From NCBI GenBank assembly GCA_964588305.1, contig CAZPOP010000001.1, positions 56,736 to 120,735 of the forward strand: DNA of 64,000 bases, written 5' to 3'. Shown here in pieces: positions 3,560-63,997 of this stretch. The stretch is from an uncultured Ignavibacteria bacterium (GTDB lineage: Bacteria; Zixibacteria; MSB-5A5; SM1-73). Under the pieces are notes generated by a model. That model was not told the origin of the DNA. It ran no database searches and saw only the letters and a program-made list of their open reading frames with translations. The translations under genes and the position numbers were made by a program. Within the stretch, counting starts at the first letter, position 1; every line of letters begins with the position of its first letter.

Positions 3560-4315
3560 ATGGAAGGGTTGTATTTTTTGGCTCCCGTGATTTTCTTTGT
3601 TATTTCCTTTGTCTTCTCTATGTTAGGAATGGGAGGGAGTCAGCTTTACGTTCCAATCCTCTATTGGTTGGGAATGGATTTTAAAAGCCAAGCCATACCC
3701 CTGGGACTTTTACTAAATTTATGTGTTCAATTGTCTGCCTTTACCACGTATTCAAGAAAAAGACTGGTGAAGCCCCAGATCGCCTTACCTTTCGCCTTGA
3801 TGATGGTTATCTTTGCCCCATTAGGAGCGATGCTTAACTTTGGGTTGCCGGCTAAACCTATAATATTTCTATTTGCAGTATTTACGCTTTTAGCCGCCAT
3901 TTTGGTTTTGTCCGGCTGGAAGCCTGAAAAAGGAAAATGGAGCAAAAATAGGGAGATGACAATAACTTTGGTCATTGGCTGTGTTCTGGGATTTCTGGTG
4001 GGGCTTATTGGCCGGGGCGGAGGGTCTTTTGTCGTCCCTACACTTCTTATTTTGGGTCTTGATCCTAAAAATGCTGCTGGAACTTCTACCCTCATCGTCA
4101 GCTTTTCATCGGCTACAGGCTTTGTGGCACATTTGCTCAAAGCCAGACTGGATTTCTGGGTAACTTTCCTAACAATTATCTGTGTGATTTCAGGGTCCCA
4201 GATCGGCTCTGGTTTGATGGCTACTAGATTGAAATCACAAACTATAAAAAAGGTTTTTGGAATCGTTTTGATTTTTGTTGCAACCCTACTTTTGAAGGAT
4301 GTGTTTTTGAAGTGA
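3560..4315 (+). CDS. TauE/SafE (TSUP) family membrane permease
   Basis: Polytopic membrane protein with duplicated halves and G-rich motifs (GMGGS.., GRGGGSF) typical of DUF81/TSUP. Confidence 0.65.
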   Translation: MEGLYFLAPVIFFVISFVFSMLGMGGSQLYVPILYWLGMDFKSQAIPLGLLLNLCVQLSAFTTYSRKRLVKPQIALPFALMMVIFAPLGAMLNFGLPAKPIIFLFAVFTLLAAILVLSGWKPEKGKWSKNREMTITLVIGCVLGFLVGLIGRGGGSFVVPTLLILGLDPKNAAGTSTLIVSFSSATGFVAHLLKARLDFWVTFLTIICVISGSQIGSGLMATRLKSQTIKKVFGIVLIFVATLLLKDVFLK

Positions 4316-5247
4316 AAACCATAGTCTATGGACCGGTTCCCTCCCGAAGATTGGGGATTTCTCTGGGAGTGGACATCGTTCCTTACAAGATCTGCAGCTA
4401 TGACTGCATTTACTGCCAGTTGGGGAAGACCACAAATCAAACCACCCAGAGGGGATCCTTTATTCCAGTCGACTCCGTGATAAAGGAGATAAAGGAAGTG
4501 ATAGATCAAAACAGCGACATTGACTACATAACCTTTTCCGGATCAGGTGAGCCAACTTTGAACAAAGACATTGGCCGGATGATAGAAAAGGTAAGGAGAA
4601 TTACCCCCATTCCGGTCGCTGTTCTGACCAATGGATCTTTGCTGTGGGACCGTGAGGTCAGAGAGGATCTGGGCGAGGCGGATCTGGTTGTCCCTTCGTT
4701 GGATGCCGTTTCAGAGAAGGTCTTTCGAAAAGTCAACCGTCCGGTTGCGGGTTTGGGAATTGAAAAGGTTCTACGTGGATTGAAAACCTTTTGCGCGCAG
4801 TTCAAGGGAAAGATCTATTTAGAGATCATGCTGGTCAAAACCGCCAATGACTCTGAAGAGGAAATCGGGGAGATCAATCGATTCGTTAAGAACCTCAGGA
4901 TCGATGAGATTCAGCTTAACACGGTGGTCCGCCCTCCAGGTGATCCAGATGCAAGGCCGCTGAACCAAGAGGAACTGAACGAAGTCAGAAGTTTGTTCGA
5001 TCCGAAGCTCAAAGTGGAAGTGATCGCCAATTTCAAGAGGGAAACAAGCAAGGCTTACCACAAGGATCTGGAGCAGGCAATAATTGAGCTCGTAAGAAGG
5101 AGGCCCACGAAGAAAGAGGAGATGGCCGTTTCCTTAGGAGTCCATCCTAATGAGATTGCCAAGTATTTGCAGGTTTTGGAGGATAATAGAACAATCAAAA
5201 GATCATGGGGCAAGGAGAAGTCGACCGTTTATTTTGTAATCGCTTAA
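4312..5247 (+). CDS. Radical SAM protein (COG0731-like) with C-terminal winged-helix-like region
   Basis: CSYDCIYC is a Cx3Cx2C motif after GPVPSRRLGISLGVD. The GTG start overlaps the TGA of the upstream gene by 4 nt. Confidence 0.7.
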   Translation: MKTIVYGPVPSRRLGISLGVDIVPYKICSYDCIYCQLGKTTNQTTQRGSFIPVDSVIKEIKEVIDQNSDIDYITFSGSGEPTLNKDIGRMIEKVRRITPIPVAVLTNGSLLWDREVREDLGEADLVVPSLDAVSEKVFRKVNRPVAGLGIEKVLRGLKTFCAQFKGKIYLEIMLVKTANDSEEEIGEINRFVKNLRIDEIQLNTVVRPPGDPDARPLNQEELNEVRSLFDPKLKVEVIANFKRETSKAYHKDLEQAIIELVRRRPTKKEEMAVSLGVHPNEIAKYLQVLEDNRTIKRSWGKEKSTVYFVIA

Positions 5248-5259
5248 CGGAGGAAGGCG

Positions 5260-6147
5260 ATGAAAACCTATTTAGATTGTGTCCCTTGCATAATTGAACA
5301 GACAATTAAAGCTGCCAGAGATTTGACCCAAGATTTGGAAAAACAGGAAAGCCTGTTACAGAAGGTATTGGAGATCCTCAGCAACATCTCCTACAACCAG
5401 TCTCCACCTTATCTGGGGAGAGAGGCACATCGGGTGATCCGCTCCATTCTGAATAATCCCGATCCTTATTCAAAACTGAAAAGACGGTTCAACCAGGTGG
5501 GGAAAGAGCTCTTTCCTTCCTTGCAGGAGCGGGTCAATGATTCGAAAGACCCGTTCGCCCAAGCAGTGAAGCTGGCCATTGCCGGTAACATCATCGATTT
5601 TGGTCCCCCGCATCACTTCGAGTTGAGAGAAACCATTGACAAAGCTTTGAAGGCGAAGCCTGCCATTGACCATACCGAGAGTTTAAGAGAAGACATAGAG
5701 TCAGCCTCGACCATCCTCTATCTGGGAGACAATGCTGGGGAGACCTTCTTTGACAGGATACTGATCGAACAAATGCCGGCCAAGGAGATTTACTTTGGGG
5801 TGAGGGGCAGTCCGGTGATAAACGATGCCACCTCGGAGGATGCCTACTGGGCGGGATTAGACAAAAGGACCAAGATCATCTCCAATGGCTCGGATGCCCC
5901 AGGAACCATACTTGAAGATTGTTCTAATGAATTCCAGGACCTCTTTGCCAGATCCGATCTGGTGATCGCCAAGGGACACGGAAACTACGAAACCTTAAGT
6001 GAGGTGCAGGGGAAAAGACTCTATTTCCTTCTCATGGTGAAGTGCGAAACCATAGCCAAGGATATTGGCTGTTCGGTCGGGGAATTCGTGGTCAAGAAAA
6101 CAGAGAGCGTCTTGGAGCCAAAGGCGCAGGCGCTTGGGAAAAAATGA
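5260..6147 (+). CDS. DUF89 / ARMT1-like (damage-control phosphatase family) protein
   Basis: The N-terminus MKTYLDCVPCIIEQ and overall size are typical of DUF89. RBS GGAGGAAGG is upstream. Confidence 0.6.
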   Translation: MKTYLDCVPCIIEQTIKAARDLTQDLEKQESLLQKVLEILSNISYNQSPPYLGREAHRVIRSILNNPDPYSKLKRRFNQVGKELFPSLQERVNDSKDPFAQAVKLAIAGNIIDFGPPHHFELRETIDKALKAKPAIDHTESLREDIESASTILYLGDNAGETFFDRILIEQMPAKEIYFGVRGSPVINDATSEDAYWAGLDKRTKIISNGSDAPGTILEDCSNEFQDLFARSDLVIAKGHGNYETLSEVQGKRLYFLLMVKCETIAKDIGCSVGEFVVKKTESVLEPKAQALGKK

Positions 6148-6395
6148 GACCTGACTTTTGGCCGAAGCCGTGCCGTATCGGGGGAATATTGGCAAAGGAC
6201 GTCCCATCTCTCCAGGCAAGGGTCGAGGGTTAGGGTACTCGCAACCAACTGTTCATTCAGAATCCGAGGCAAGGACCTTATTCTATTGCCCGACTTTGTC
6301 GGGTCACTCAGAGGCACTTCCCTTTTTGGAATTTACACACAACTCGAAGTAAATCCACACAGACGATAACCTCCAAACAAAGCCAAGAAAACCTA

Positions 6396-6424
6396 TTGAC
6401 TTTCGTAAGAGAATAAGATAAGAT
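6396..6424 (+). promoter_or_regulatory. Candidate sigma70-like promoter upstream of the YdiJ-like oxidoreductase
   Basis: TTGACT, then 17 nt, then TAAGAT, about 95 nt upstream of ATG 6519. Confidence 0.3.
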
Positions 6425-6518
6425 TGGAATAGGGAAAACCAATTTATCTTGGAGTCGGACAGAAACACGAATGTCATTAAGGAAGTTTCTTCGATAATCT
6501 TTTACAAGAGAATATAAT

Positions 6519-19010: not shown

Positions 19011-19160
19011 TCTTTGGCCTGAACCATTTGGTTCGCACCTGAGAATCCAGGAACCTTGGAGTCAAAATCAATTGGTTGTGATCATTATAGGACTTGGGAA
19101 CCGATTGTCAAGAGATTGTTCTTGGGATTTTCTAGAGTGAGGGAATTGAGAAGGCTGCCT

Positions 19161-19213
19161 GCGAAGTGATAGGTCCTAACCGGGATAGGGGTACAACCCC
19201 TATCCCAACAAAG
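19161..19213. repeat. 53-nt repeat copy A containing the 25-bp perfect palindrome GGGATAGGGGtacaaCCCCTATCCC
   Basis: Lies in the comEC-gtrA divergent intergenic region. The palindrome is at 19182..19206. Confidence 0.8.
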
Positions 19214-19236
19214 TGACGAAACGGAGAAAGCGACAT

Positions 19237-19289
19237 GCGAAGCGACAGGTCCTTATTGGGACAGGGGTACAACCCCTGTCCCAACAAAG
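19237..19289. repeat. 53-nt repeat copy B containing the palindrome GGGACAGGGGtacaaCCCCTGTCCC
   Basis: Differs from copy A by a compensatory T:A to C:G change within the stem. The palindrome is at 19258..19282. Confidence 0.8.
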
Positions 19290-33149: not shown

Positions 33150-33224
33150 GCACTTCGTGCTGCCCTTCGGTTCCGCATTTCGTCCTGCCCTTCGGTCCCG
33201 CATTTCGTCCTGCCCTTCGGTCCC
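33150..33224. repeat. Three tandem copies of a 25-nt unit (GCATTTCGTCCTGCCCTTCGGTCCC)
   Basis: Direct tandem repeats in the tgt-yajC intergenic region. The first copy is slightly diverged. Confidence 0.85.
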
Positions 33225-33225
33225 G

Positions 33226-33299
33226 AGACCTCAGGGTCGAGGGAAGACTCAATGTCGAAGGAAGACCTCAGGGTCGAGGGAAGACTCAGTGTCGAAGGA
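33226..33299. repeat. Two tandem copies of a 37-nt unit (AGACCTCAGGGTCGAGGGAAGACTCARTGTCGAAGGA)
   Basis: Immediately follows the 25-nt array. One A/G difference between copies. Confidence 0.85.
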
Positions 33300-34671: not shown

Positions 34672-34771
34672 AGAAGTGATATTTTCATCGTTGTAGCGTC
34701 CCGCCTTTGGCGGGATTACCCGCCACATCTCTGGGTTCGGGGTGAGGGCACCCCGAAACAACGGTAGCTAT

Positions 34772-35432: not shown

Positions 35433-35472
35433 GTCAAGCAGTCCCCCGCCTCTGGCGGGAGACATGCTTGAC
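35433..35472. repeat. Hairpin element GTCAAGCA...TGCTTGAC carrying an internal CCCGCCtctGGCGGG hairpin
   Basis: 8-bp outer stem plus 6-bp GC inner stem. The same inner hairpin occurs in the GTCATTCTGA family. Confidence 0.6.
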
Positions 35473-38596: not shown

Positions 38597-39952
38597 CTAA
38601 AGGGTTTCACTTTCTATCGCCTCTTCCACTTTTCTTTTCGCCTCTTCCAATAATTCTTTCGCTTTTCTTCTTGCTTCATGAGATTGACGGACGAGTAAGG
38701 CGATTTCTTTCTGGATCTTATCAGGCATTATGGGAATTGTAATTCTCTTGAGAGACGCCTTCGGAACGGCAGTCAAAATCGTGCCTGCACATTGTTTTTT
38801 GAGTTGCGCTTGGAGAACTATACTTTTTGATAAAACCAATAACACCTCGGGAAGGATTTTTATATACCTGAACTGGAAAAAACCAGTAGAGGCTAAGGCT
38901 CCTTCATACGCTTGACCGACCAAGGCTACTTTCTCTAAAGAACCTTCCACGCTTGAAACTATTATGTCATTCTTTCTTAAAACCCTCCTCGCTCTGCTTG
39001 GGGCCTCTTCACCTTTTATCTCACTTACGCTGTTTACGACTCCAATAGAAGGGTCTATGTCAGCCAATTCGACATAAGAAAAGGTTTTATGGGGGTGTCT
39101 CATGGGATCAAAATCAGGCTTGATACTCTTAACATAATTTAACAACCACGAATGACCATTTTGATAATCCAATATGCATTTTATCACTTCTTCGTAAGCA
39201 GGCTGGAAATACTCAGCATCTGCACGATGAACTGCAAATGTTTTGGAAAGATTAGCAGTATAAGAAAGTTCGTATTTTGCCTTAAAATTGGTTAATCCTA
39301 ATTCTTCTAAAAGCAGGTTTTCAGCTTGCGAAAATAAATTACGCGAATCTTCAAGCAATATAGTGGCCTGTTTAGTTGTTTTCCCTATCTGCTCAGCATT
39401 CTTTATTTCGGGGATTAATAACTCTTCGATTTTTTCGATAAACAGATTCAATTGAACATTACCAGTTGACTCTCTGAATGCCTGGAATCTCCCGTATTTT
39501 GAATTGAGAAATGTCGATACATAAAATGGATCAAACTTCTTATTCTTTAACCGCACAATTCCAACATGCCTATCTGCATTAATTGGTAACATGCACGCTG
39601 AAACAACAGCAGTGTTGCCAATGGTGCCTACTGATGAAATAATTATGTCTCCGACACTTAATGAAGTTCTAAGATTTCTTTGGTGTTGCTCAGCAGAGAT
39701 GCGAGTATTTGCCGATAAGTCAAAATCATTATCTTGAACTGATTGAGCAGAGATTATTCTTATTTTGCTATTAGGATCATAGTCAATGGATGAATGAATC
39801 CCATCCGTGATTAAGGCAAAGCGTTTTAATGGTTTACTACTGATTTTGAGAAGTCTCTTTTCTAATTTTAGATATAATGGCTGATAATATTCAGCATCCA
39901 ACCTTTTGGTTCCTTTAAGATCAGATATATTAGATACACTTACCACAGCCAT
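38597..39952 (-). CDS. Restriction-modification specificity (S) subunit with two target-recognition domains
   Basis: 451 aa. Two TRD halves separated and terminated by conserved coiled-coil spacers (HsdS/BcgIB-like). Immediately downstream of a methylase gene. Confidence 0.75.
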   Translation of the reverse strand: MAVVSVSNISDLKGTKRLDAEYYQPLYLKLEKRLLKISSKPLKRFALITDGIHSSIDYDPNSKIRIISAQSVQDNDFDLSANTRISAEQHQRNLRTSLSVGDIIISSVGTIGNTAVVSACMLPINADRHVGIVRLKNKKFDPFYVSTFLNSKYGRFQAFRESTGNVQLNLFIEKIEELLIPEIKNAEQIGKTTKQATILLEDSRNLFSQAENLLLEELGLTNFKAKYELSYTANLSKTFAVHRADAEYFQPAYEEVIKCILDYQNGHSWLLNYVKSIKPDFDPMRHPHKTFSYVELADIDPSIGVVNSVSEIKGEEAPSRARRVLRKNDIIVSSVEGSLEKVALVGQAYEGALASTGFFQFRYIKILPEVLLVLSKSIVLQAQLKKQCAGTILTAVPKASLKRITIPIMPDKIQKEIALLVRQSHEARRKAKELLEEAKRKVEEAIESETL

Positions 39953-48339: not shown

Positions 48340-48412
48340 GTCATTCTGAGCCCCGCCTCTGGCGGGACGAAGAATCTCAAAAGACGAGATGCTTCGCTTC
48401 GCTCAGCATGAC
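48340..48412. repeat. MITE/BIME-like element of the same family (GTCATTCTGAG...CTCAGCATGAC)
   Basis: Left unit has the CCCCGCCtctGGCGGG insert. Right unit is GAGATGCTTCgcttcGCTCAGCATGAC, with a compensatory T>G / A>C pair relative to the left unit. Confidence 0.65.
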
Positions 48413-48442: not shown

Positions 48443-50572
48443 CTATTTCAAAAGCAGCATTTTCTTCGTCTCCGAGACCACCGTTTCATTTCTTTCCACG
48501 GTAAGCTTATAGAAGTAGATGCCGCTTGCGACACGCTCTCCGGCGTTCCCCTTTCCATCCCACGTAATCGTATAAGCACTTGAGGGCTGGAATCCATGTA
48601 CAAGTGTCCTGATTTCCTGACCCAACAGGTTATATATCTTGAGCGTAACCTGGCTGCGCTTGCTTAGCGCGTACTCGATAGTCGTCTGAGGATTGAACGG
48701 ATTGGGAAAATTCTGCGCCAGATCGAAATCTTTGGGAGAGCCGACGAATTCGTCGTCATCCTCTTCTACCGACGTACAACCGCCGTTTGTGGTGTGCAGG
48801 ATTGTGCCATACTCGCCTACGGCCCAACCGGTGCTGGTATCCGTAAAACAGACGCTGTAAAGCCAATTCGAAGTTCCGGAGCTCTGCGCGTCCCAGTTGC
48901 TTCCACCATCAGTGGTGTGTATGATCGTGCCGGAGGCTCCTACCGCCCAACCCTTACCGACATCGATGAAACAGACGCTTTCGAGGTAGTTGAAAGTTCC
49001 AGAATCCTGAACGGCCCAGTTGCCTCCTCCATCGGCGGTGTGTAAGATTATACCGTCCCCACCCACTATCCACCCAGTGTCGGCATCGGTGAAGTAGACG
49101 CTATTGAGCCGCAGGGAAGTTCCAGAACTTTGAGGACTCCAGTTACCCCCAGCATTGATGGTGTGCAAGATTGTGCCGGAATCTCCTGAAACCCAGCCGA
49201 CATCGGCGTCTATGAAATACACGCAATAAAGCCACTGGGAAGTTCCGGAATTTTGGGCATCCCAACTGCTTCCCCCGTCGGTGGTCTGTAAGATTACGCC
49301 GGAATCTCCTACTGCCCAGCCAGTATCGCCGTCCGAGAAATATACACCGTAAAAATGATCTGAAGTTCCAGGAGTTTGAGCATCCCAGTGGCCACCTTGA
49401 TCGGTGGTGCGTAAGATCGTGCTGTCCAAACCTGCCGCCCAACCAGTGCTGTCGTCTGCAAAATGGATACTGAAAAGGTGACTAAAAGTTCCAGAGCTAT
49501 CGGCATGCCAGCTGCTGCCTTTATCGGTGGTGTGTAAGATCGTGCCAAAATCCCCTGCTGCCCAGCCAGCGCTGTCATCTGTGAAACAAACACTCCTCAG
49601 GTGATTTGGGGTCCCGGAAGTTTGACGATTCCAGTGGTCCCCTTCGTCTGCGGTCTTTAAGATGGTACCGCCGTATCCTACCGTCCAGCCCGTAGTGGCG
49701 TCCGCGAAATAGACGCCATTCAGACCACTTGACGCTCCGGAAGTCTGAGCATCCCAGTCGGCACCGCCGTTGGTGGTGTGCAAGATCGTACCGTACTCTC
49801 CTACTGCCCAGCCGGCATCGGCATCTACAAAATAGACGCCGAAAAGCGGCTGTAAAGTTTCGGAAGTCTGAGGACTCCAGTTGCCTCCGCTATTGGTGGT
49901 GTAAAGGATCGTGCCTGCCTCCCCTACTGCCCAGCCAGCACTGGCGTCCGCAAAATAGACGCCGTTAAGCCACTCCAGAATTCCAGAAGTCTGAGCATCC
50001 CAGTTGCTTCCCCCATTGGCGGTGTGTAGGATCGTCCCTGAATCTCCTACTGCCCAGCCGGTATCGGCATCCACAAAATAGACACCGTAAAACGATTGGT
50101 TAGTTTCCGATGTCTGAGGATTCCACTTGCTTCCACCGTTTGTGGTGTGCACGATTACGCCACTCTGTCCGACTGCCCAGCCGTTATCGGCATCCGTAAA
50201 ATAGACGCTCTTGAGGCGATTGGGAGTCTCGGAATCCTGAGGATCCCAATTGTCCCCACCGTCGGTGGTGTGCAGTATCGTGCCATGATCACCTACTATC
50301 CACCCGGTATCGGCATTCATGAAATGGACACCGAAAAGGTGACTTGACGTTCCGGAACTCTCAGGACTCCAGCTGCTTCCGCCGTCTGTGGTGTATAAGA
50401 TCGTCCCAACATCTCCTACCGCCCAGCCAGTATCGTCGTCTGTGAAAAAAACACTCCAAACGGTATTACCCTGAAGCAGAGGATTCTGCCAGTGCCAGCC
50501 TTGCTGGGCATAGCTCGTGGCTGCCACAAGCGTCAATCCCAAAATTATCAAGATTCTCTTGAACAAAACCAC
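48443..50572 (-). CDS. Secreted Ycf48/BNR-like repeat beta-propeller protein with T9SS C-terminal sorting domain
   Basis: Signal peptide. About 14 repeats of GTILHTTDGGxxWxxQxSGT...L..V.F.D...GWAVG. C-terminal FPNPFNPQTTIEY...LKIYNLLGQEI...GIYFYKL is the T9SS CTD. Confidence 0.75.
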   Translation of the reverse strand: MVLFKRILIILGLTLVAATSYAQQGWHWQNPLLQGNTVWSVFFTDDDTGWAVGDVGTILYTTDGGSSWSPESSGTSSHLFGVHFMNADTGWIVGDHGTILHTTDGGDNWDPQDSETPNRLKSVYFTDADNGWAVGQSGVIVHTTNGGSKWNPQTSETNQSFYGVYFVDADTGWAVGDSGTILHTANGGSNWDAQTSGILEWLNGVYFADASAGWAVGEAGTILYTTNSGGNWSPQTSETLQPLFGVYFVDADAGWAVGEYGTILHTTNGGADWDAQTSGASSGLNGVYFADATTGWTVGYGGTILKTADEGDHWNRQTSGTPNHLRSVCFTDDSAGWAAGDFGTILHTTDKGSSWHADSSGTFSHLFSIHFADDSTGWAAGLDSTILRTTDQGGHWDAQTPGTSDHFYGVYFSDGDTGWAVGDSGVILQTTDGGSSWDAQNSGTSQWLYCVYFIDADVGWVSGDSGTILHTINAGGNWSPQSSGTSLRLNSVYFTDADTGWIVGGDGIILHTADGGGNWAVQDSGTFNYLESVCFIDVGKGWAVGASGTIIHTTDGGSNWDAQSSGTSNWLYSVCFTDTSTGWAVGEYGTILHTTNGGCTSVEEDDDEFVGSPKDFDLAQNFPNPFNPQTTIEYALSKRSQVTLKIYNLLGQEIRTLVHGFQPSSAYTITWDGKGNAGERVASGIYFYKLTVERNETVVSETKKMLLLK
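49567..50572. repeat. About 1-kb near-identical direct repeat (copy 1) covering the N-terminal third of the first T9SS propeller gene
   Basis: Identical 83-aa antisense ORFs at 50096..50347 and 52504..52755 demonstrate at least 252 nt of perfect identity. Protein N-termini are near-identical for ~335 aa. Confidence 0.8.
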
Positions 50573-50604: not shown

Positions 50605-52971
50605 CTATTTCACCAGCAACATCTTCCTCGTTTCCGAGACCACGGTCTCATTTCTTTCCACGGTAAGCTTATAGAAGTAGATGCCGCTTGCCGCCCTCTC
50701 TCCGGATGTCCCCTTTCCGTCCCAGGTTATCTTGTGAGGACCTGAGGGTTGGAATCCATCTACAAGAGTCCTGATTTCCTGACCCAATAGGTTATATATC
50801 TTGAGAGTGACCTGGCTGTGTTTAGTTAGCGCATACTGGATGGTGGTCTGAGGATTAAATGGATTGGGGTAGTTCTGTGCCAAGCTTAGAGTCTTGGGCA
50901 AGTTGACGAATTCGCTTCCCTCTTCTTCTACAGCAGTTACACCTCCTGTTGTGGTGTGCAAGATTGTGCCAAAGTTACCTACTGCCCAGCCTGTGTTGGC
51001 ATCGACAAAAAAGATACTATTGAGCGCATTTGAAGTGCCGGAATTCTGTTCGCTCCAACTGCTTCCCCCATCGGTGGTGTGCATAATTATGCCAGACTCA
51101 CCTACTATCCAGCCGGTATCAGCGTCTATGAAATAGACGCCATAATGGTGACTGGAGGTTCCAGAAGTTTGAGGATTCCAATTGCTTCCACCATTGGCGG
51201 TGTGTAAGATTGTGCCACTATTTCCCACTGCCCAGCCAATGTTCGCATCCACAAAACAGACAGCGGAGAGGTCCCTCGGAGTTGGGGGAGCTTGAGCATT
51301 CCAGTGATCTCCGCCATCGGTGGTGTGTAAGATTGTGCTATCATATCCTACCACCCAACCTGTATTGGCATCTGTGAAATAGACACTTGGAAGGTAATTT
51401 GAAGTTCCAGAAACTTGAGCAATCCAGTTGCTTCCACCATTGGTGGTGTGCAAGATCGTGCCCTTATTTCCCACTGTCCAACCAGTGCTGTCATTTGCAA
51501 AAAAGACACTGACAAGATGATTTGAGGTTCCCGGAGTTTGGGGATTCCAGTTTTCGCCTCCATCCATGGTGTGTAAGATTGTGCTATCCCGTCCTACTGC
51601 CCAGCCCAGATTCTCATCTGTAAAACAAACGCCTAAAAGGTTCTTTGAAGTGTGAGATGTCTGATCAGTCCAGGTGTCTCCACCATCACTGGTGTGTAAG
51701 ATGGTGCCAGCATCTCCTGCTGCCCAGCCAGTATTGTCATCTATAAAATGGAGTCCATAAAGCTTTTCTAAAGTTCCGAAAGTCTGATGGTTCCAGTAGC
51801 TTCCGCCGTCAGTAGTGTAAAAGATTGAACCAGCACTTCCCACTGCCCAGCCAACCCTGGCATTAATAAAATAAACACCACTAGCGCAAGCTGAAGTCCA
51901 GGGAGTTTGAGCATTCCAGTTGGTTCCGCCATCTGTGGTGTGTAAGATCGTGCCGAAATCCCCTGCTGCCCAGCCAGCACTGTCATCTGTGAAACAAACA
52001 CTCCTCAGGTGATTTGGGGTCCCGGAGGTTTGACGATTCCAGTGGTCCCCTTCGTCTGCGGTCTTTAAAATCGTACCGCCGTATCCTACCGTCCAGCCCG
52101 TAGTGGCGTCCGCGAAATAGACGCCATTCAGACCACTTGAAGCTCCAGAAGTCTGAGCCTCCCAGTCGGTACCGCCGTTGGTGGTGTGTAAGATCGTTCC
52201 GTACTCCCCTACTGCCCACCCGGCATCGGCATCCGTAAAATAGACTCCGAAAAGCGGCTGCAAAGTTTCGGAAGTCTGAGGACTCCAGTTGTCTCCGCCA
52301 TTGGTGGTGTAAAGGATTGTGCCTGCCTCCCCTACTGCCCAGCCAGTACCGGCGTCGGCAAAATAGACACCGTTCAGCCACTCCAGAATTTCAGAACTCT
52401 GAGCAGTCCAGTTGTTTCCCCCATTGGCGGTGTGTAGGATCGTCCCTGAATCTCCTACTGCCCAGCCGCTATCGGCATCCACAAAATAGACACCGTAAAA
52501 CGATTGGTTAGTTTCCGATGTCTGAGGATTCCACTTGCTTCCACCGTTTGTGGTGTGCACGATTACGCCACTCTGTCCGACTGCCCAGCCGTTATCGGCA
52601 TCCGTAAAATAGACGCTCTTGAGGCGATTGGGAGTCTCGGAATCCTGAGGATCCCAATTGTCCCCACCGTCGGTGGTGTGCAGTATCGTGCCATGATCAC
52701 CTACTATCCACCCGGTATCGGCATTCATGAAATGGACACCGAAAAGGTGACTTGACGTTCCGGAACTCTCAGGACTCCAGCTGCTTCCGCCGTCTGTGGT
52801 GTATAAGATCGTCCCAACATCTCCTACCGCCCAGCCAGTATCGTCGTCTGTGAAAAAAACACTCCAAACGGTATTACCCTGAAGCAGAGGATTCTGCCAG
52901 TGCCAGCCTTGCTGGGCATAGCTTGTGGATGCTAAGAGTATTAGTCCTAAAACGATAAGGGTTCTCCTCAA
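50605..52971 (-). CDS. Secreted Ycf48/BNR-like repeat beta-propeller protein with T9SS C-terminal sorting domain (tandem paralog)
   Basis: Same architecture at 788 aa. The N-terminal ~335 aa is nearly identical to the downstream paralog. Confidence 0.75.
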   Translation of the reverse strand: MRRTLIVLGLILLASTSYAQQGWHWQNPLLQGNTVWSVFFTDDDTGWAVGDVGTILYTTDGGSSWSPESSGTSSHLFGVHFMNADTGWIVGDHGTILHTTDGGDNWDPQDSETPNRLKSVYFTDADNGWAVGQSGVIVHTTNGGSKWNPQTSETNQSFYGVYFVDADSGWAVGDSGTILHTANGGNNWTAQSSEILEWLNGVYFADAGTGWAVGEAGTILYTTNGGDNWSPQTSETLQPLFGVYFTDADAGWAVGEYGTILHTTNGGTDWEAQTSGASSGLNGVYFADATTGWTVGYGGTILKTADEGDHWNRQTSGTPNHLRSVCFTDDSAGWAAGDFGTILHTTDGGTNWNAQTPWTSACASGVYFINARVGWAVGSAGSIFYTTDGGSYWNHQTFGTLEKLYGLHFIDDNTGWAAGDAGTILHTSDGGDTWTDQTSHTSKNLLGVCFTDENLGWAVGRDSTILHTMDGGENWNPQTPGTSNHLVSVFFANDSTGWTVGNKGTILHTTNGGSNWIAQVSGTSNYLPSVYFTDANTGWVVGYDSTILHTTDGGDHWNAQAPPTPRDLSAVCFVDANIGWAVGNSGTILHTANGGSNWNPQTSGTSSHHYGVYFIDADTGWIVGESGIIMHTTDGGSSWSEQNSGTSNALNSIFFVDANTGWAVGNFGTILHTTTGGVTAVEEEGSEFVNLPKTLSLAQNYPNPFNPQTTIQYALTKHSQVTLKIYNLLGQEIRTLVDGFQPSGPHKITWDGKGTSGERAASGIYFYKLTVERNETVVSETRKMLLVK
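51966..52971. repeat. About 1-kb near-identical direct repeat (copy 2)
   Basis: See copy 1. Boundaries are approximate, +/- 30 nt. Confidence 0.8.
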
Positions 52972-55151: not shown

Positions 55152-56057
55152 TCATGCGACTAATCTCAGATAAGCCTGCTCGTATCTTTCTAGAGTTTTA
55201 AGTATCACCTCTTCGGGCAGTTCCGGGGCCGGAGGTTTTTTATTCCAACCTATGCTTTCCAAATAATCCCGGACAATCTGTTTATCAAAAGCTTCCTGTG
55301 GTTTCCCCACCTTGTAAATCTTCTTATCCCAGAATCTGGACGAGTCCGAGGAGAATATCTCGTCGATTAAGATTAACTTTTTATCTATCATCCCGAATTC
55401 AAATTTGGTATCCGCAATGATCATTCCTCTTTTTTCCGCATAATCCGCAGCCTTTTTGTACACCCGAATACTTTTGCTCCTTAATCTCAAGGCCACGTCT
55501 TCTCCGACCATTTTTATCACTTGTTCAAAGGTAAGGCTTTCATCATGCCCCTCTTCCGCTTTGGTGGTGGGCGTAAATATGGGATAAGGTAGTCTTTCTG
55601 ATTCTCTGAAATGAGTCGGGAGGTCTATTCCGAAGAGGTCTACCGATTTTGACTTACCTACATACAATCTTTTTTGCTTGTACTCCTTCCACAGAGATCC
55701 GGAGATGTATCCTCTCACCACACACTCGATGTCGATCCTCTTGGCCTTCTTGACCAGCATGGATCTCCCTTCGAGAACGTTTCGGTATTTCTGAAGATCT
55801 TCAGGATACTGATCAACATCAGAGGTGATCAGATGATTTCCAACCACGCCCTTGACCAGATCAAACCAGAACAAGGACATCTGGGTCAAGACTTTGCCTT
55901 TTCCGGGAATGCCGGTGGGAAGAACCACGTCGAAAGCGGATATTCTGTCGGTTGCCAGGATTAGAAGCTTATCACCCAGATCGTAAACGTCCCTGACCTT
56001 TCCCTTGGCGAAGAGTTTGTATTCTTTGATATCAGTTTCCATCAACGGTTGTTCCAT
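55152..56057 (-). CDS. purC: Phosphoribosylaminoimidazole-succinocarboxamide synthase
   Basis: GKVRDVYD...LILATDRISAFD SAICAR synthetase motifs. Confidence 0.9.
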   Translation of the reverse strand: MEQPLMETDIKEYKLFAKGKVRDVYDLGDKLLILATDRISAFDVVLPTGIPGKGKVLTQMSLFWFDLVKGVVGNHLITSDVDQYPEDLQKYRNVLEGRSMLVKKAKRIDIECVVRGYISGSLWKEYKQKRLYVGKSKSVDLFGIDLPTHFRESERLPYPIFTPTTKAEEGHDESLTFEQVIKMVGEDVALRLRSKSIRVYKKAADYAEKRGMIIADTKFEFGMIDKKLILIDEIFSSDSSRFWDKKIYKVGKPQEAFDKQIVRDYLESIGWNKKPPAPELPEEVILKTLERYEQAYLRLVA

Positions 56058-56083
56058 TTAACCTCCGAATTTGTAGTGAGTTT

Positions 56084-56109
56084 GTCAAGCAGGCTTCGCC
56101 ATGCTTGAC
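56084..56109. repeat. Hairpin element GTCAAGCAggcttcgccaTGCTTGAC
   Basis: 8-bp stem in the purC-purN intergenic region. Confidence 0.6.
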
Positions 56110-56200
56110 CTACAAGCTGCTCTTCTGGAGTGTAAAGCTTCAGCTTTACCATTGGCAAACCTGAAGGTCAACTTTGATCTTGAGATTTGCACTCCAGGTT

Positions 56201-56827
56201 TTAGTCTCTGATATATGCTTTCTTATCCTTTATCTCGACTTTACCTTCCGCAAAAAGCCGAATGGCTTTGGAATAAAGCTCGTGCTCGTGCGGCAATACC
56301 CTCTGCTGCAAAATCTCCGGAGTGTCCTCAGCCAGAACCGGCACGCATTTCTGCACGATGATGGCACCATGGTCATAGATTTCATCCACCAGGTGGACGG
56401 TCACGCCGGTGACCTTCACTCCCGAATCGATCACCGCCTCGTGCACGTGGATGCCATACATACCCGATCCGCCAAAGCTGGGAAGAAGCGCCGGATGAAT
56501 GTTCAGTATCTTATTCTTATATGCCCTGACCACATTGGGCGAAAGCATTTTCATGTATCCGGCCAAAATGATCAGATCGGTTTCATTCTCTTTCAGGATG
56601 GAAAGGAGCTTTTGATCGAACTCTTCCGGCGTGGCAAATTGCTTGTGGCTTAGGTGAATTGCCGGAATGTTATGGTTTCTGGCACGCTCCAGGGCACCCG
56701 ATTTGCTGTTGTTGCTTATCACCGCTTTGATCTGTGCATTCAGAATTCCTTTTTCGATATTGTCGATTATGGCTTGCAGGTTAGTTCCACCACCTGAAGC
56801 CAAAGCCACCAAATTCAACTTTTTCAT
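56201..56827 (-). CDS. purN: Phosphoribosylglycinamide formyltransferase
   Basis: LASGGGTNLQAII...NIHPALLP formyl-transferase motifs. Confidence 0.85.
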   Translation of the reverse strand: MKKLNLVALASGGGTNLQAIIDNIEKGILNAQIKAVISNNSKSGALERARNHNIPAIHLSHKQFATPEEFDQKLLSILKENETDLIILAGYMKMLSPNVVRAYKNKILNIHPALLPSFGGSGMYGIHVHEAVIDSGVKVTGVTVHLVDEIYDHGAIIVQKCVPVLAEDTPEILQQRVLPHEHELYSKAIRLFAEGKVEIKDKKAYIRD

Positions 56828-56857
56828 ATCGAAAAATCTCCTCTATTACTTTCATCT

Positions 56858-56908
56858 GTAGCGGAGGTCTTCAGACCTCCATTGTGGAAAGCTGAAGCTT
56901 TCCGCTAC
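56858..56908. repeat. Composite structured element: outer stem GTAGCGGA/TCCGCTAC enclosing two hairpins
   Basis: Inner hairpins are GGAGGTCttcaGACCTCC and GGAAAGCtgaaGCTTTCC. Lies between purN and the MNT gene. Confidence 0.55.
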
Positions 56909-57028
56909 ATTTGCCGTTCTGCGTGTATCTGAGGTGGCCAGAAGGCGAGTTGGGCAAAGTATCATAATGATGAAGTCAGATACACTCTCTTGGGTGATGG
57001 ACGATTTTTCACGCCTCCTTTTTTTCTT

Positions 57029-57343
57029 TCATGCTGGCATTCCTTCCCTTCGCACATTCATAAGCAATGGACTGTTAACTGTGGAGTAGTCTTCCTCAGA
57101 CACGGGGTAAACCGATATAAGCGCACCGTATTTTAGGTTTATATCTGTGATTATATCTATCATCCTGTCTATCTCTCTCCCGGGAATAACTTTTCCTTCC
57201 AGAATGATAAGCAGGTCTATATCTGATTCTTCTTTTGCCTCACCTCTTGCCCAGGAGCCATAAAGGATAACATTCCTTAATCTGTTGCCATATAATTCAT
57301 TGATTTCTTCTTTGAATTCCTTAAGTATTCCTTTTATTCTCAT
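57029..57343 (-). CDS. Nucleotidyltransferase-domain protein (minimal nucleotidyltransferase, MNT-type)
   Basis: GSWARGEAKEESDIDLLI is the GS-x9-13-DxD pol-beta-type NTase motif. 104 aa. Confidence 0.75.
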   Translation of the reverse strand: MRIKGILKEFKEEINELYGNRLRNVILYGSWARGEAKEESDIDLLIILEGKVIPGREIDRMIDIITDINLKYGALISVYPVSEEDYSTVNSPLLMNVRREGMPA

Positions 57344-61611: not shown

Positions 61612-63063
61612 CTATTCTGTCTCACGTTTTGAAAGCTTCCCCTTCAGGATTTCATTTACCAGTTTGGGATTCGCCTTTCCTTTGGTTTCTTTCATAACCT
61701 CGCCCACAAAAAACCCAAAGAGCTTTTTTTCTCCGGCATGATATCTTTCTACATTCTCCTCATATTCCTTTAATACACTTTCTATAATCAAAGTCAAATC
61801 CTTTTTGTCGGTTATCTGCACCAATCCTTTTTCTTCTATTATCTGTGAAGCTTCCTTCCCGGTCTCTGCCATCTGGGCAAACACCTCTTTTCCCATCTTC
61901 CCGCTGATGGTTCCCTGATCTATCGCTCTTAACAAACCCGCTAAATCCACCGGGCTGATTTTGAAATCTGTTATCCCAATCTTTCTCTGGTTCAATTCTC
62001 TTAAGATTTCTGTCATCACCCAATTGCTTACCTTTTTCCCATCCGCGTAGTTCTTCATGCACTCCTCATAATATTCCGCCAACTCTTTGGAGACAGTCAG
62101 AACTTCGGCGTCATATTCCGGGATTTGGTAATCCCGGATGAATCTCTCCCTCGTCTGATCCGGAAGTTCCGGTAGGTCTCTTCTGACCTGATGGAGCCAT
62201 TCATCTGAGATAGCCAAGGTGACCAGATCAGGCTCGGGGAAGTATCTGTAATCGTGAGATTCCTCCTTGCTCCTCATGACAAACGACATTTGCCTTCTTT
62301 CATCCCAGAGCAGGGTCTCCTTTTCTATGGTTCCGCCTTTTTCCAAAATGCCGATCTGCCTTCTTATCTCATAATCCAAAGCCTTCTCCACACCCCGGAA
62401 GGAATTCATGTTCTTGACTTCTGTGTTGATTCCTAATTCTTCCGCGCCCCTGGGTCTTACAGACACATTTGCATCGCATCGCAGTGCCCCCTCTTCCATA
62501 TTGCCGCTGCATACCCCAAGATATTGAACCATCTGCTTCAATTTGTTCAGGTACAGATATGCCTCCTGAGGAGAACTTATATCCGGCTCACTGACGATTT
62601 CAAGAAGAGGGATACCGCACCGGTTCATATCCACAGAGGTTCGCGCATCATCCCCCTCGTCTTCCGGATGCACTGATTTTCCAGCGTCCTCCTCCAGATG
62701 AATCCGGGTAATTCTGACTTTTTTACTGTCGCCGTTTGTTTGAATCTCGATGAAGCCAGCCGTAGCCAAAGGCTCTTCGTATTGGGATATCTGGTAGCCT
62801 TTGGGCAAATCGGGATAAAAATAATTCTTTCGGGCGAAGATGCTTTTGGGATTGACTTGTCCACCGACTGCCAAAACCATCTTTATAGCATACTCCACAG
62901 CCTTTTTGTTCAACACCGGCAAGACTCCTGGCATCCCCAGACAGACCGGACAGGTCTGGGTATTGGGGGGACTGCCAAATTTGGTGGAACATCCACAGAA
63001 TATCTTGGACTCTGTCAGAAGCTGAGCGTGAACCTCCAGGCCGATTTTGCTTTCGTATTCCAT
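61612..63063 (-). CDS. gatB: Asp-tRNA(Asn)/Glu-tRNA(Gln) amidotransferase subunit B
   Basis: IGLEVHAQL...CGC...CPVCLGMPGVLP N-terminus and GatB/YqeY C-domain. Confidence 0.9.
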   Translation of the reverse strand: MEYESKIGLEVHAQLLTESKIFCGCSTKFGSPPNTQTCPVCLGMPGVLPVLNKKAVEYAIKMVLAVGGQVNPKSIFARKNYFYPDLPKGYQISQYEEPLATAGFIEIQTNGDSKKVRITRIHLEEDAGKSVHPEDEGDDARTSVDMNRCGIPLLEIVSEPDISSPQEAYLYLNKLKQMVQYLGVCSGNMEEGALRCDANVSVRPRGAEELGINTEVKNMNSFRGVEKALDYEIRRQIGILEKGGTIEKETLLWDERRQMSFVMRSKEESHDYRYFPEPDLVTLAISDEWLHQVRRDLPELPDQTRERFIRDYQIPEYDAEVLTVSKELAEYYEECMKNYADGKKVSNWVMTEILRELNQRKIGITDFKISPVDLAGLLRAIDQGTISGKMGKEVFAQMAETGKEASQIIEEKGLVQITDKKDLTLIIESVLKEYEENVERYHAGEKKLFGFFVGEVMKETKGKANPKLVNEILKGKLSKRETE

Positions 63064-63090
63064 CTTCTCGGATTGACTCTTGGTTCTTCT

Positions 63091-63144
63091 CGCGTAGCGG
63101 AGTCTTTATGGCTCCGTGCAGAGGCGTGAAGCCTCTGCTACGCG
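63091..63144. repeat. Composite structured element homologous to 56858..56908
   Basis: Outer stem CGCGTAGC/GCTACGCG. Hairpins are CGGAGtctttatggCTCCG and GCAGAGGCgtgaaGCCTCTGC. The second hairpin covaries with the first copy (GAAAGC/GCTTTC vs AGAGGC/GCCTCT) and keeps the loop yTGAAG. Confidence 0.55.
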
Positions 63145-63211
63145 GTAATCAGACCGGACCTTCGCAGGCTAGACCTTGCGGCTACCAAAACCATGATTCT
63201 GAGTCTTGTAG

Positions 63212-63237
63212 GTCGAGCATGGCGAAGCCTGCTCGAC
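63212..63237. repeat. Hairpin element GTCGAGCAtggcgaagccTGCTCGAC (inverted copy of 56084..56109 with compensatory stem change)
   Basis: Loop is the reverse complement of the 56084 copy. The stem A:T becomes G:C on both arms. Flanking CTACAAG / CTTGTAG are also conserved. Confidence 0.6.
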
Positions 63238-63256
63238 ATTCCTTCTCCGAAAAAGG

Positions 63257-63997
63257 CTATTTGACATTATCTCTAATCAATGCAAGCATCTCGTCAAGCC
63301 CCTGTATCATTCGGCGGTAGCTGCCAACAAAGAAATCCGGTAACTCATCTCTTTCCTGCTGAAGTCTAGATAGCTCCTCAGGGTTTTGGACATTCTTCAG
63401 GAAAGACTCGAAGTACGTCGCTGTCGAGCATTTTCTGTGGACTATTTGCCGACGTCTTCGGTTAATTGTGTCCTTGTATTGCTCTTCTTTAAATCTCAAA
63501 AGACTTTGGAAATTTCGGTCTGCTGCTAGTTCTGTAGCGAGCTTGTCCATTAGAGGCGAAAAATATACTTTCTCTGAGTCACTTTCAGCTTGAAAAAAGA
63601 TATTCAAGAAATTTGCGACTCTATTCCAGAAGTTGTATAAACGCATAAACACATCGTCGACAAAGTAGAAAAAGCGGTTGTCCAGTTCCGTCTCGAATAA
63701 ACCGCCTATGGGACCGTATTGGCTTCGAGTTATTTGGAATCTTACCAAGCCTATTTCGGATAACAAAAGTGCATTGGCGATCGCAAATCTCGCCTCACGC
63801 CCAATGCGAAGCAAATCTTCCTCTTGGAAGTCCACCTGTCCGTTCTTGTTGTATTTGGGTCTCAGATGACCTATGTGCTCCGCAAACTTCTTAAAGTAGT
63901 TACCCTCGTGGACCACATCAATTAGCCGCTGCTGTTTGAAAATCCTATGGATTTCTTCTAAATAACGTTTGAAGGTTTCTCGTGAGGTTGTCCTCAT
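63257..63997 (-). CDS. Hypothetical protein (246 aa)
   Basis: ORF with ATG 3 nt from the window end. No family recognised. Confidence 0.4.
   Translation of the reverse strand: MRTTSRETFKRYLEEIHRIFKQQRLIDVVHEGNYFKKFAEHIGHLRPKYNKNGQVDFQEEDLLRIGREARFAIANALLLSEIGLVRFQITRSQYGPIGGLFETELDNRFFYFVDDVFMRLYNFWNRVANFLNIFFQAESDSEKVYFSPLMDKLATELAADRNFQSLLRFKEEQYKDTINRRRRQIVHRKCSTATYFESFLKNVQNPEELSRLQQERDELPDFFVGSYRRMIQGLDEMLALIRDNVK

Follow-up and report, generated by a model that had tools for sequence, protein, structure and literature searches.

The two short palindromic elements found at positions 56858-56908 (A1) and 63091-63144 (A2) of the 64,000-nt stretch of DNA analysed here (the window) are very probably head-to-head dimers, or REPIN-like doublets, of a GTAG-tagged REP (repetitive extragenic palindrome), REPs being ssDNA hairpins that are recognised by RAYTs (REP-associated tyrosine transposases, HUH/Y1). 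They are genuine, non-random and conserved, and they belong to an ordinary and well-described kind of selfish bacterial repeat whose cognate RAYT is identified in related loci. A first-pass annotation of the same DNA had presented them as two copies of a three-stem element, in which a conserved loop and compensatory stems pointed either to a structured RNA or to a hairpin recognised by a protein. It is the second of these options that fits, given the REP anatomy of the elements and the RAYT genes flanked by the same family in related loci, while the first one encounters a number of difficulties that are discussed below.

In each doublet, one unit is present twice and inverted head-to-head, the unit being composed of a GTAGC head followed by a hairpin of 6-8 bp with a TTYA-type loop, and the GTAG heads lying on the outside. 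A1, recognised by its sequence, its fold and as an inverted repeat, is formed by unit 1 (56858-56880, plus strand; GTAGC GGAGGTC TTCA GACCTCC), the spacer ATTGT (56881-56885) and unit 2 (56886-56908, minus strand; GTAGC GGAAAGC TTCA GCTTTCC, which on the plus strand is GGAAAGC TGAA GCTTTCC GCTAC). A2 is a subfamily variant whose unit 1 (63094-63115, plus strand; GTAGC GGAGTC TTTAT GGCTCC) is separated by GT from unit 2 (63118-63141, minus strand; GTA GCAGAGGC TTCAC GCCTCTGC, or GCAGAGGC GTGAA GCCTCTGC TAC on the plus strand), and the trinucleotides CGC and GCG that flank the pair lengthen its outer pairing. The four units of A1 and A2 all begin with GTAG(C) and measure 22-24 nt, with stems of 6-8 bp (perfect or with G-T), loops of 4-5 nt and spacers between the units of 5 nt in A1 and 2 nt in A2. 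For the family as a whole, the unit consensus is 5'-GTAGC + GGA-NNNN / 4-nt loop / NNNN-TCC-3', two inverted units 3-12 nt apart making up an element of ~50 nt.

The sequences stand exactly where the first-pass annotation had placed them, and their folds are far more stable than those of shuffled sequences (z = -5.6 for A1 and -5.9 for A2, with none of 200 shuffles as good); in addition, A1 and A2 are the two longest short-range inverted repeats of the entire 64 kb. The second hairpin does differ between the copies while staying self-complementary, as had been claimed. Of the architecture proposed for them, on the other hand, only a part stands. The three-stem fold is the minimum-free-energy (MFE) fold of A2 but is not uniquely favoured in A1, where the three-way junction (-26.4 kcal/mol) is equalled by a single long imperfect hairpin (-26.6 kcal/mol, the MFE). 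The closing stem of 8 bp has to be shortened, since its base (GG/CC in A1, GC in A2) is shared with the inner hairpins and only ~5-7 outer pairs can therefore coexist with them; this stem is nothing other than two GTAGC heads facing each other. Finally, the conserved loop yTGAAG does recur, but it is no independent motif, being the reverse complement of the TTCA loop of the unit together with its closing pair.

A search of the window with the CM R1, which was built from the family members of the genome scan described below, recovers A1 at 79.1 bits on the plus strand and 65.8 bits on the minus strand, the near-symmetric inverted doublet scoring on both strands, and A2 at 44.6 bits, with E-values for these window copies of 2e-22 and 1.5e-11. 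With the filters off, a third and decayed doublet is detected as well (32.4 bits, E = 1e-7) at 56121-56201, in the purC-purN spacer, where it is also recognisable as an inverted repeat (GTAAAGC TTCA GCTTTAC, CATTG, GCAAACC TGAA GGTCAAC). Its heads are mutated and its first hairpin has been preserved through a compensatory double change. The first 56 kb of the window hold no copy found by R1, and the two intact doublets and the decayed one all lie within 56-63.2 kb.

The same region carries a second GTAG-tagged REP family (B), with the consensus GTAGG + 9-bp stem TCRAGCATG / loop GCGAAG / CCTGCTYGA, then C. One of its units (GTAGG TCGAGCATG GCGAAG CCTGCTCGA C, 63208-63237, plus strand) occupies the same spacer as A2, and another (GTAGG TCAAGCATG GCGAAG CCTGCTTGA C, 56084-56113, minus strand) adjoins the decayed A copy, a compensatory G>A/C>T stem change separating the two. 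The stretch from 56 to 63.3 kb is thus a local REP cluster, in which the purC-purN-MNT and HEPN-gatB spacers carry at least three REP types (A1, A2 and B); the tally for the source genome within the 64 kb amounts to two intact and one decayed A doublet and two B units. A comparable arrangement is seen in L004, a locus from a MAG labelled Ignavibacteria that is syntenic with the window (gatB 76% and the HEPN protein 63% identical), whose HEPN-gatB interval contains two A2-type doublets and three further B units (at 4433, 5065 and 6190). That interval (4285-6479) also holds two extra genes, encoding a bPH_5 protein (165 aa) and a DUF7544 protein (285 aa), each followed by A2 and/or B REPs, whereas the equivalent interval of the window (63064-63256) lacks both genes. 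This indel, bounded by REP copies, is compatible with REP-mediated recombination.

Some other repeats of the window deserve a mention. A B-like outer stem (GTCAAGCAG...CATGCTTGAC) encloses the inner hairpin CCCGCC TCTG GCGGG at 35433-35471, the same inner hairpin appearing again at 48349-48366 and at about 6237-6256 of L004, and GTAGCG + TCCCGCC TTT GGCGGGA is found at 34693-34716; these nested palindromes may represent additional types of REP or variants in the loop. The adjacent paralogous genes at 48443-50572 and 50605-52971 (both on the minus strand; 709 and 788 aa) contain ~26 copies of a 123-nt (41-aa) repeat and share a 296-nt segment that is 83% identical. Tandem repeats are also present in or near the spacers at 19136-19287 and 33150-33299, comprising two copies of 76 nt, both with the hairpin GGGAYAGGGGT-ACA-ACCCCTRTCCC at the end, and three copies of 25 nt that precede two of 37 nt.

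The first-pass annotation had named the lack of further copies as the result that would speak against it; hundreds of copies exist elsewhere. A pattern spanning both window copies gave 47 matches in GTDB genome contigs, a number that is about the chance expectation. Clear family members account for 16 of them. The labels of these 16 loci comprise Zixibacteria (three MAGs), Ignavibacteria (five), Desulfobacteraceae, Dehalococcoidia, Vulcanimicrobiota and Doudnabacteria, two being unclassified. R1 located more copies inside the same 8-kb loci in L004, L006, L011 and L014, and the A2 subtype is found in L004 (5198-5245 and 6122-6176) and in L011 (6590-6637 and 4940-4999). The neighbours in the 16 loci are unrelated housekeeping genes (e.g., pyrD/pyrF, an ammonia-lyase or membrane proteins), to which the elements are oriented both ways and at distances from starts or stops of 2-179 nt. 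One of the members, in a GC-rich MAG labelled Dehalococcoidia (L006, 3219-3338), has a hairpin-rich insertion of ~45 nt within its first unit.

In metagenomes, a pattern whose sole constraints were the heads and the GGA/TCC bases of the stems, with any sequence allowed in the loops, in the spacer and at the four inner pairs of each stem, gave at least 120 loci with at least 123 elements, 114 of which are unique after strand collapse among the matches listed. The GC content of the family loci goes from about 37% to 75%. There were 0 matches among 2.9 million viral contigs, so the element is not phage-borne. The GTAGC head is imposed by the search patterns, and its constancy among the members gathered here is therefore no separate piece of evidence; single units with no inverted partner keep it too (L082, at 1645, 1754, 2405 and 2514).

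The family is repetitive in these loci and mostly extragenic. GTAGC-hairpin units number 362 in the 787 kb of family loci listed, versus 3 in the 236 kb of 31 control loci with chance matches, and the element clusters beyond the seeded one amount to 0.078 per kb of family loci, which would extrapolate to a few hundred per genome, a figure that is indirect and biased by clustering. All the copies in the window are intergenic. In related loci, a frame of at least 60 codons is open on both sides of only 20% of the elements, compared with 72% of random positions, according to a both-sides open-frame criterion that replaced a measure of the stop-free span, too crude for GC-rich contigs.

This larger collection bears out the suspicion that the stems are compensatory rather than the result of drift. 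In the 114 strand-collapsed unique elements among the matches listed, the eight unconstrained stem pairs are Watson-Crick in 97.5% of cases, versus 47.0 +/- 1.4% with shuffled partners (3' halves swapped between elements), and 91% of the hairpins are perfect at the unconstrained positions, versus 7% after shuffling. In the CM alignment, 99.5% of the cells pair, as opposed to 35-45% in slid controls, and 15 of the 19 pairs vary on both sides, something that none of 500 shuffles reaches; restricted to the hairpins, the pairs varying on both sides are 12 of 14. The hairpins are therefore under selection for pairing. By contrast, the outer GTAGC/GCTAC helix is essentially invariant and shows no covariation, and since that invariance was imposed by the search patterns, it does not speak for the heads pairing with each other. 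Pairs other than Watson-Crick, including G-U, make up ~0.5% of the pair cells in the same alignment, which fits a DNA palindrome working on both strands better than a constraint acting on RNA only.

The loops of one doublet are exact reverse complements of each other in 63 of these 114 elements, which confirms that each element arose as a unit and its inverted duplicate. The loops form the subfamilies TTYA/TRAA, GCCA/TGGC, GTGA/TCAC and CTTC/GAAG. The inner stem is alike in both halves in only 16 of the 114.

A further link to REP biology comes from the genes that accompany the family. A tblastn search over the metagenome loci, for which the sequence of an E. coli RAYT served as bait only, led to five loci (L082, L074, L135, L130 and L075) with a RAYT gene at most 2.2 kb from an element. 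The five ORFs pass the NCBIfam model NF047646 'REP-associated tyrosine transposase', whose cut-off is 80, with 82-114 bits, and they also pass Pfam Y1_Tnp. All five proteins, which are only 48-54% identical, keep the catalytic Tyr and the HUH motif. To meet five such genes within ~0.57 Mb of element-seeded metagenome loci greatly exceeds the expectation for a gene of which a genome typically has a single copy. In L082, L074 and L135, the RAYT gene is bracketed on both sides by arrays of units or doublets, and in L130 and L075 it lies within 2.2 kb of an element. The arrangement is particularly regular in L082, where the gene (1910-2383) is placed between two blocks of ~270 nt, each consisting of three REP-headed 109-nt repeats and ending in a full doublet. 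L135 provides the connection to the window itself: the unit GTAGCGGAGGTCTTCAGACCTCC, 128 nt upstream of the RAYT gene, is identical in 23 of 23 positions to the window unit at 56858-56880, and the doublet at 4140-4194 of that locus joins GTAGCGGAGGTCTTCAGACCTCC with GGAAAGC, that is, with the partner stem that it has in A1. The A2 subtype never adjoins a RAYT gene in the loci of this analysis, and a search for RAYT or IS200 TnpA found none in the 64-kb window and none in the 16 GTDB loci. The only match in the window, a weak one to TnpA (38972-39067, E = 0.006), was rejected, as it falls inside an ORF of 451 aa (38597-39952, minus strand) that, judging by its sequence, looks like the specificity subunit (HsdS) of a type I restriction-modification system.

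An alternative explanation, suggested in part by the position of A1 and A2 among the genes of the window, is a dedicated cis-regulatory or small structured RNA that would fold as a three-way junction and would belong to the 5' leader of purN in one case and of gatB in the other. On the minus strand, purN (Formyl_trans_N; 56201-56827) follows the gene of an MNT-type nucleotidyltransferase (57029-57343), and gatB (61612-63063) follows orf246, a Cthe_2314-like HEPN gene (63257-63997). A1 stands 120 nt past the MNT stop codon, downstream of this gene as had been noted, and 30 nt ahead of the purN ATG. A2 had been placed downstream of gatB, which is wrong because gatB is on the minus strand: the element comes 112 nt after the end of the HEPN gene, and from it to the gatB ATG, which it precedes, there are 27 nt. 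Measured from the GTAGC head, the distance to the ATG is exactly 30 nt for both intact copies (56828-56857 for purN and 63064-63093 for gatB), the flanking genes are co-directional, the folds are stable and the hairpins covary, all of which speaks for such an RNA. There is also no promoter-like site between either element and the ATG, so that the elements are probably transcribed. Promoter and terminator scans around A1 and A2 give nothing that coincides with either element, and their spacers, compared outside the elements, have no similarity beyond chance. Beside A1, at 56924-56986 in the MNT-purN spacer, an inverted repeat can be made out by eye (GTGTATCTGA ... TCAGATACAC), its arms of 10 bp being separated by 43 nt.

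Nonetheless, a dedicated RNA is a very unlikely explanation. The equal spacing to the ATG, considered as a functional clue, is probably a coincidence in view of the distances of 2-179 nt found elsewhere, where the neighbours are unrelated and both orientations occur. Rfam 15, one of the checks proposed in the first-pass annotation, has 0 families that reach their gathering threshold anywhere in the window, and relaxing the limit to E <= 10 over 56000-57100 brings up nothing but noise (E >= 1.4). Further points against an RNA are the strand symmetry of the element, an outer stem that does not covary, the near absence of G-U pairs, the existence of partnerless single units and of tandem arrays, and the association with RAYT genes. 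The REP doublets are probably co-transcribed with the neighbouring genes, judging from their location between co-directional genes and 27-30 nt from a start codon; that they secondarily serve as hairpins in the mRNA (stabilisers or processing barriers) is a speculation, and such a role would not be the reason for their existence.

According to a second alternative, the elements would be MITE/PATE-type derivatives of an autonomous IS200/IS605, moved by a classical TnpA(IS200) or by a TnpB element and not by a domesticated RAYT. RAYTs are homologous to the TnpA of IS200, the five proteins do match the IS200 model NF033573 weakly, and the broad spread of phylum labels would suit an IS that moves horizontally. 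However, the scores for that model are 23-36 bits, below its cut-off of 55, whereas the same proteins exceed the cut-off of the RAYT equivalog. The elements have a RAYT-typical GTAG head and inverted halves, while the ends of IS200/IS605 are direct on one strand; no tnpB-like ORF is found beside the RAYT genes of the five metagenome loci, and the result for the viral contigs weighs against such an IS as well. All this makes the alternative very improbable. It is hardly conceivable that the elements are ordinary intrinsic terminators, attC sites of an integron or palindromes arisen by chance, in spite of the location between co-directional genes 112-120 nt past the stops of accessory-type genes (MNT, HEPN) and of imperfect palindromes of roughly attC size. 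On both strands a T-run is missing after the element, neither copy is called by the terminator scan, the ends are GTAGC...GCTAC with the core sites RYYYAAC/GTTRRRY absent from both boundaries, and a chance origin is excluded by the CM E-values and the hundreds of homologous copies. A scan for tRNA and tmRNA found none.

The REP doublets agree in most respects with the GTAG-tagged REPs described by Di Nocera, De Gregorio & Rocco (2013, PMC3733652): a GTAG tag by a stem-loop of 6-9 bp, HH dimers with GTAG outside, complementary stem changes between subfamilies and a location between unidirectional ORFs. The likeness to this class, which includes the E. coli REP/BIME and the Pseudomonas REPs, covers the unpaired tag, the stem of 6-9 bp, the HH dimers, the compensated subfamilies, the coexistence of several types within a genome (in this case A1, A2 and B) and the placement between unidirectionally transcribed ORFs. 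Unlike the known GTAG REPs, which are mainly from Gammaproteobacteria, those reported here have hosts in uncultivated lineages (MAGs labelled Ignavibacteria, Zixibacteria and others), and the spacer of the dimer is very short (3-12 nt). The motif GTAGC-GGANNNN-(TTYA)-NNNNTCC does not appear in the running text of PMC3733652 (0 occurrences of GTAGC), a work that gives its 24 family consensuses in a figure, and a literature search for the literal sequence GTAGCGGA/TCCGCTAC retrieved only unrelated primer lists.

The similarities extend to REPINs, which are inverted REP pairs (Bertels & Rainey 2011, PMC3116915; Bertels 2017, PMC5581495): the REPs are inverted, the spacer is short and one long hairpin is possible, as in the MFE fold of A1. 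The RAYT genes flanked by the same repeats in L082, L074 and L135 are likewise what is seen in REPIN-RAYT systems. One difference is that the two halves here usually have different inner stems, resembling in this the Y/Z REP pairs of E. coli BIMEs. As for the subterminal hairpins of IS200/IS605 and the PATEs, they are alike in being small ssDNA hairpins for a HUH/Y1 enzyme of the same superfamily, but differ in the adjacent enzymes, which here pass the RAYT model, in the GTAG head, in the inverted arrangement (IS ends being direct) and in the tnpB-like ORF, which is missing beside the RAYT genes here.

Transferring what is known of REP/RAYT biology (Nunvar 2010; Bertels & Rainey 2011, PMC3116915; Messing 2012, PMC3479197; Ton-Hoang/Corneloup 2021, PMC8266576) to this family, the source genome would be expected to encode a cognate RAYT. 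The enzyme would bind each unit as a single-stranded DNA hairpin, reading the unpaired GTAG head, and by cleaving and rejoining nearby it would allow the doublets to spread as non-autonomous elements.

For the annotation of the window, the consequence is that a candidate "novel RNA" is removed and that the spacers concerned are recognised as a REP cluster. A GTAG-REP family and its RAYT are thereby documented in lineages that have received little study, from MAGs labelled Ignavibacteria, Zixibacteria and others, and the CM R1 and the search patterns are usable to mask such repeats when metagenomes are searched for ncRNAs. The only aspect of some wider interest is the host breadth of the shared head and stem base, which is relevant to the way in which REPIN-RAYT systems are disseminated. 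A REP family is usually confined to one lineage, and the REPIN-RAYT systems described are lineage-specific and vertically inherited, whereas here one head and stem base is found under many phylum labels. This is unusual and could reflect horizontal spread, an ancient recognition code or, in part, the mislabelling of MAGs. That one REP/RAYT lineage (GTAGCGGA...TCC near-invariant, RAYTs 48-54% identical) is common to uncultivated bacteria labelled as at least six phyla is a tentative idea, and a rather doubtful one. If true, it would mean either an inter-phylum horizontal spread of REPIN-RAYT in sediment and soil communities or a very ancient conservation of the recognition code, and either option would conflict with the view that REPIN-RAYT pairs are specific to a lineage and passed on vertically.
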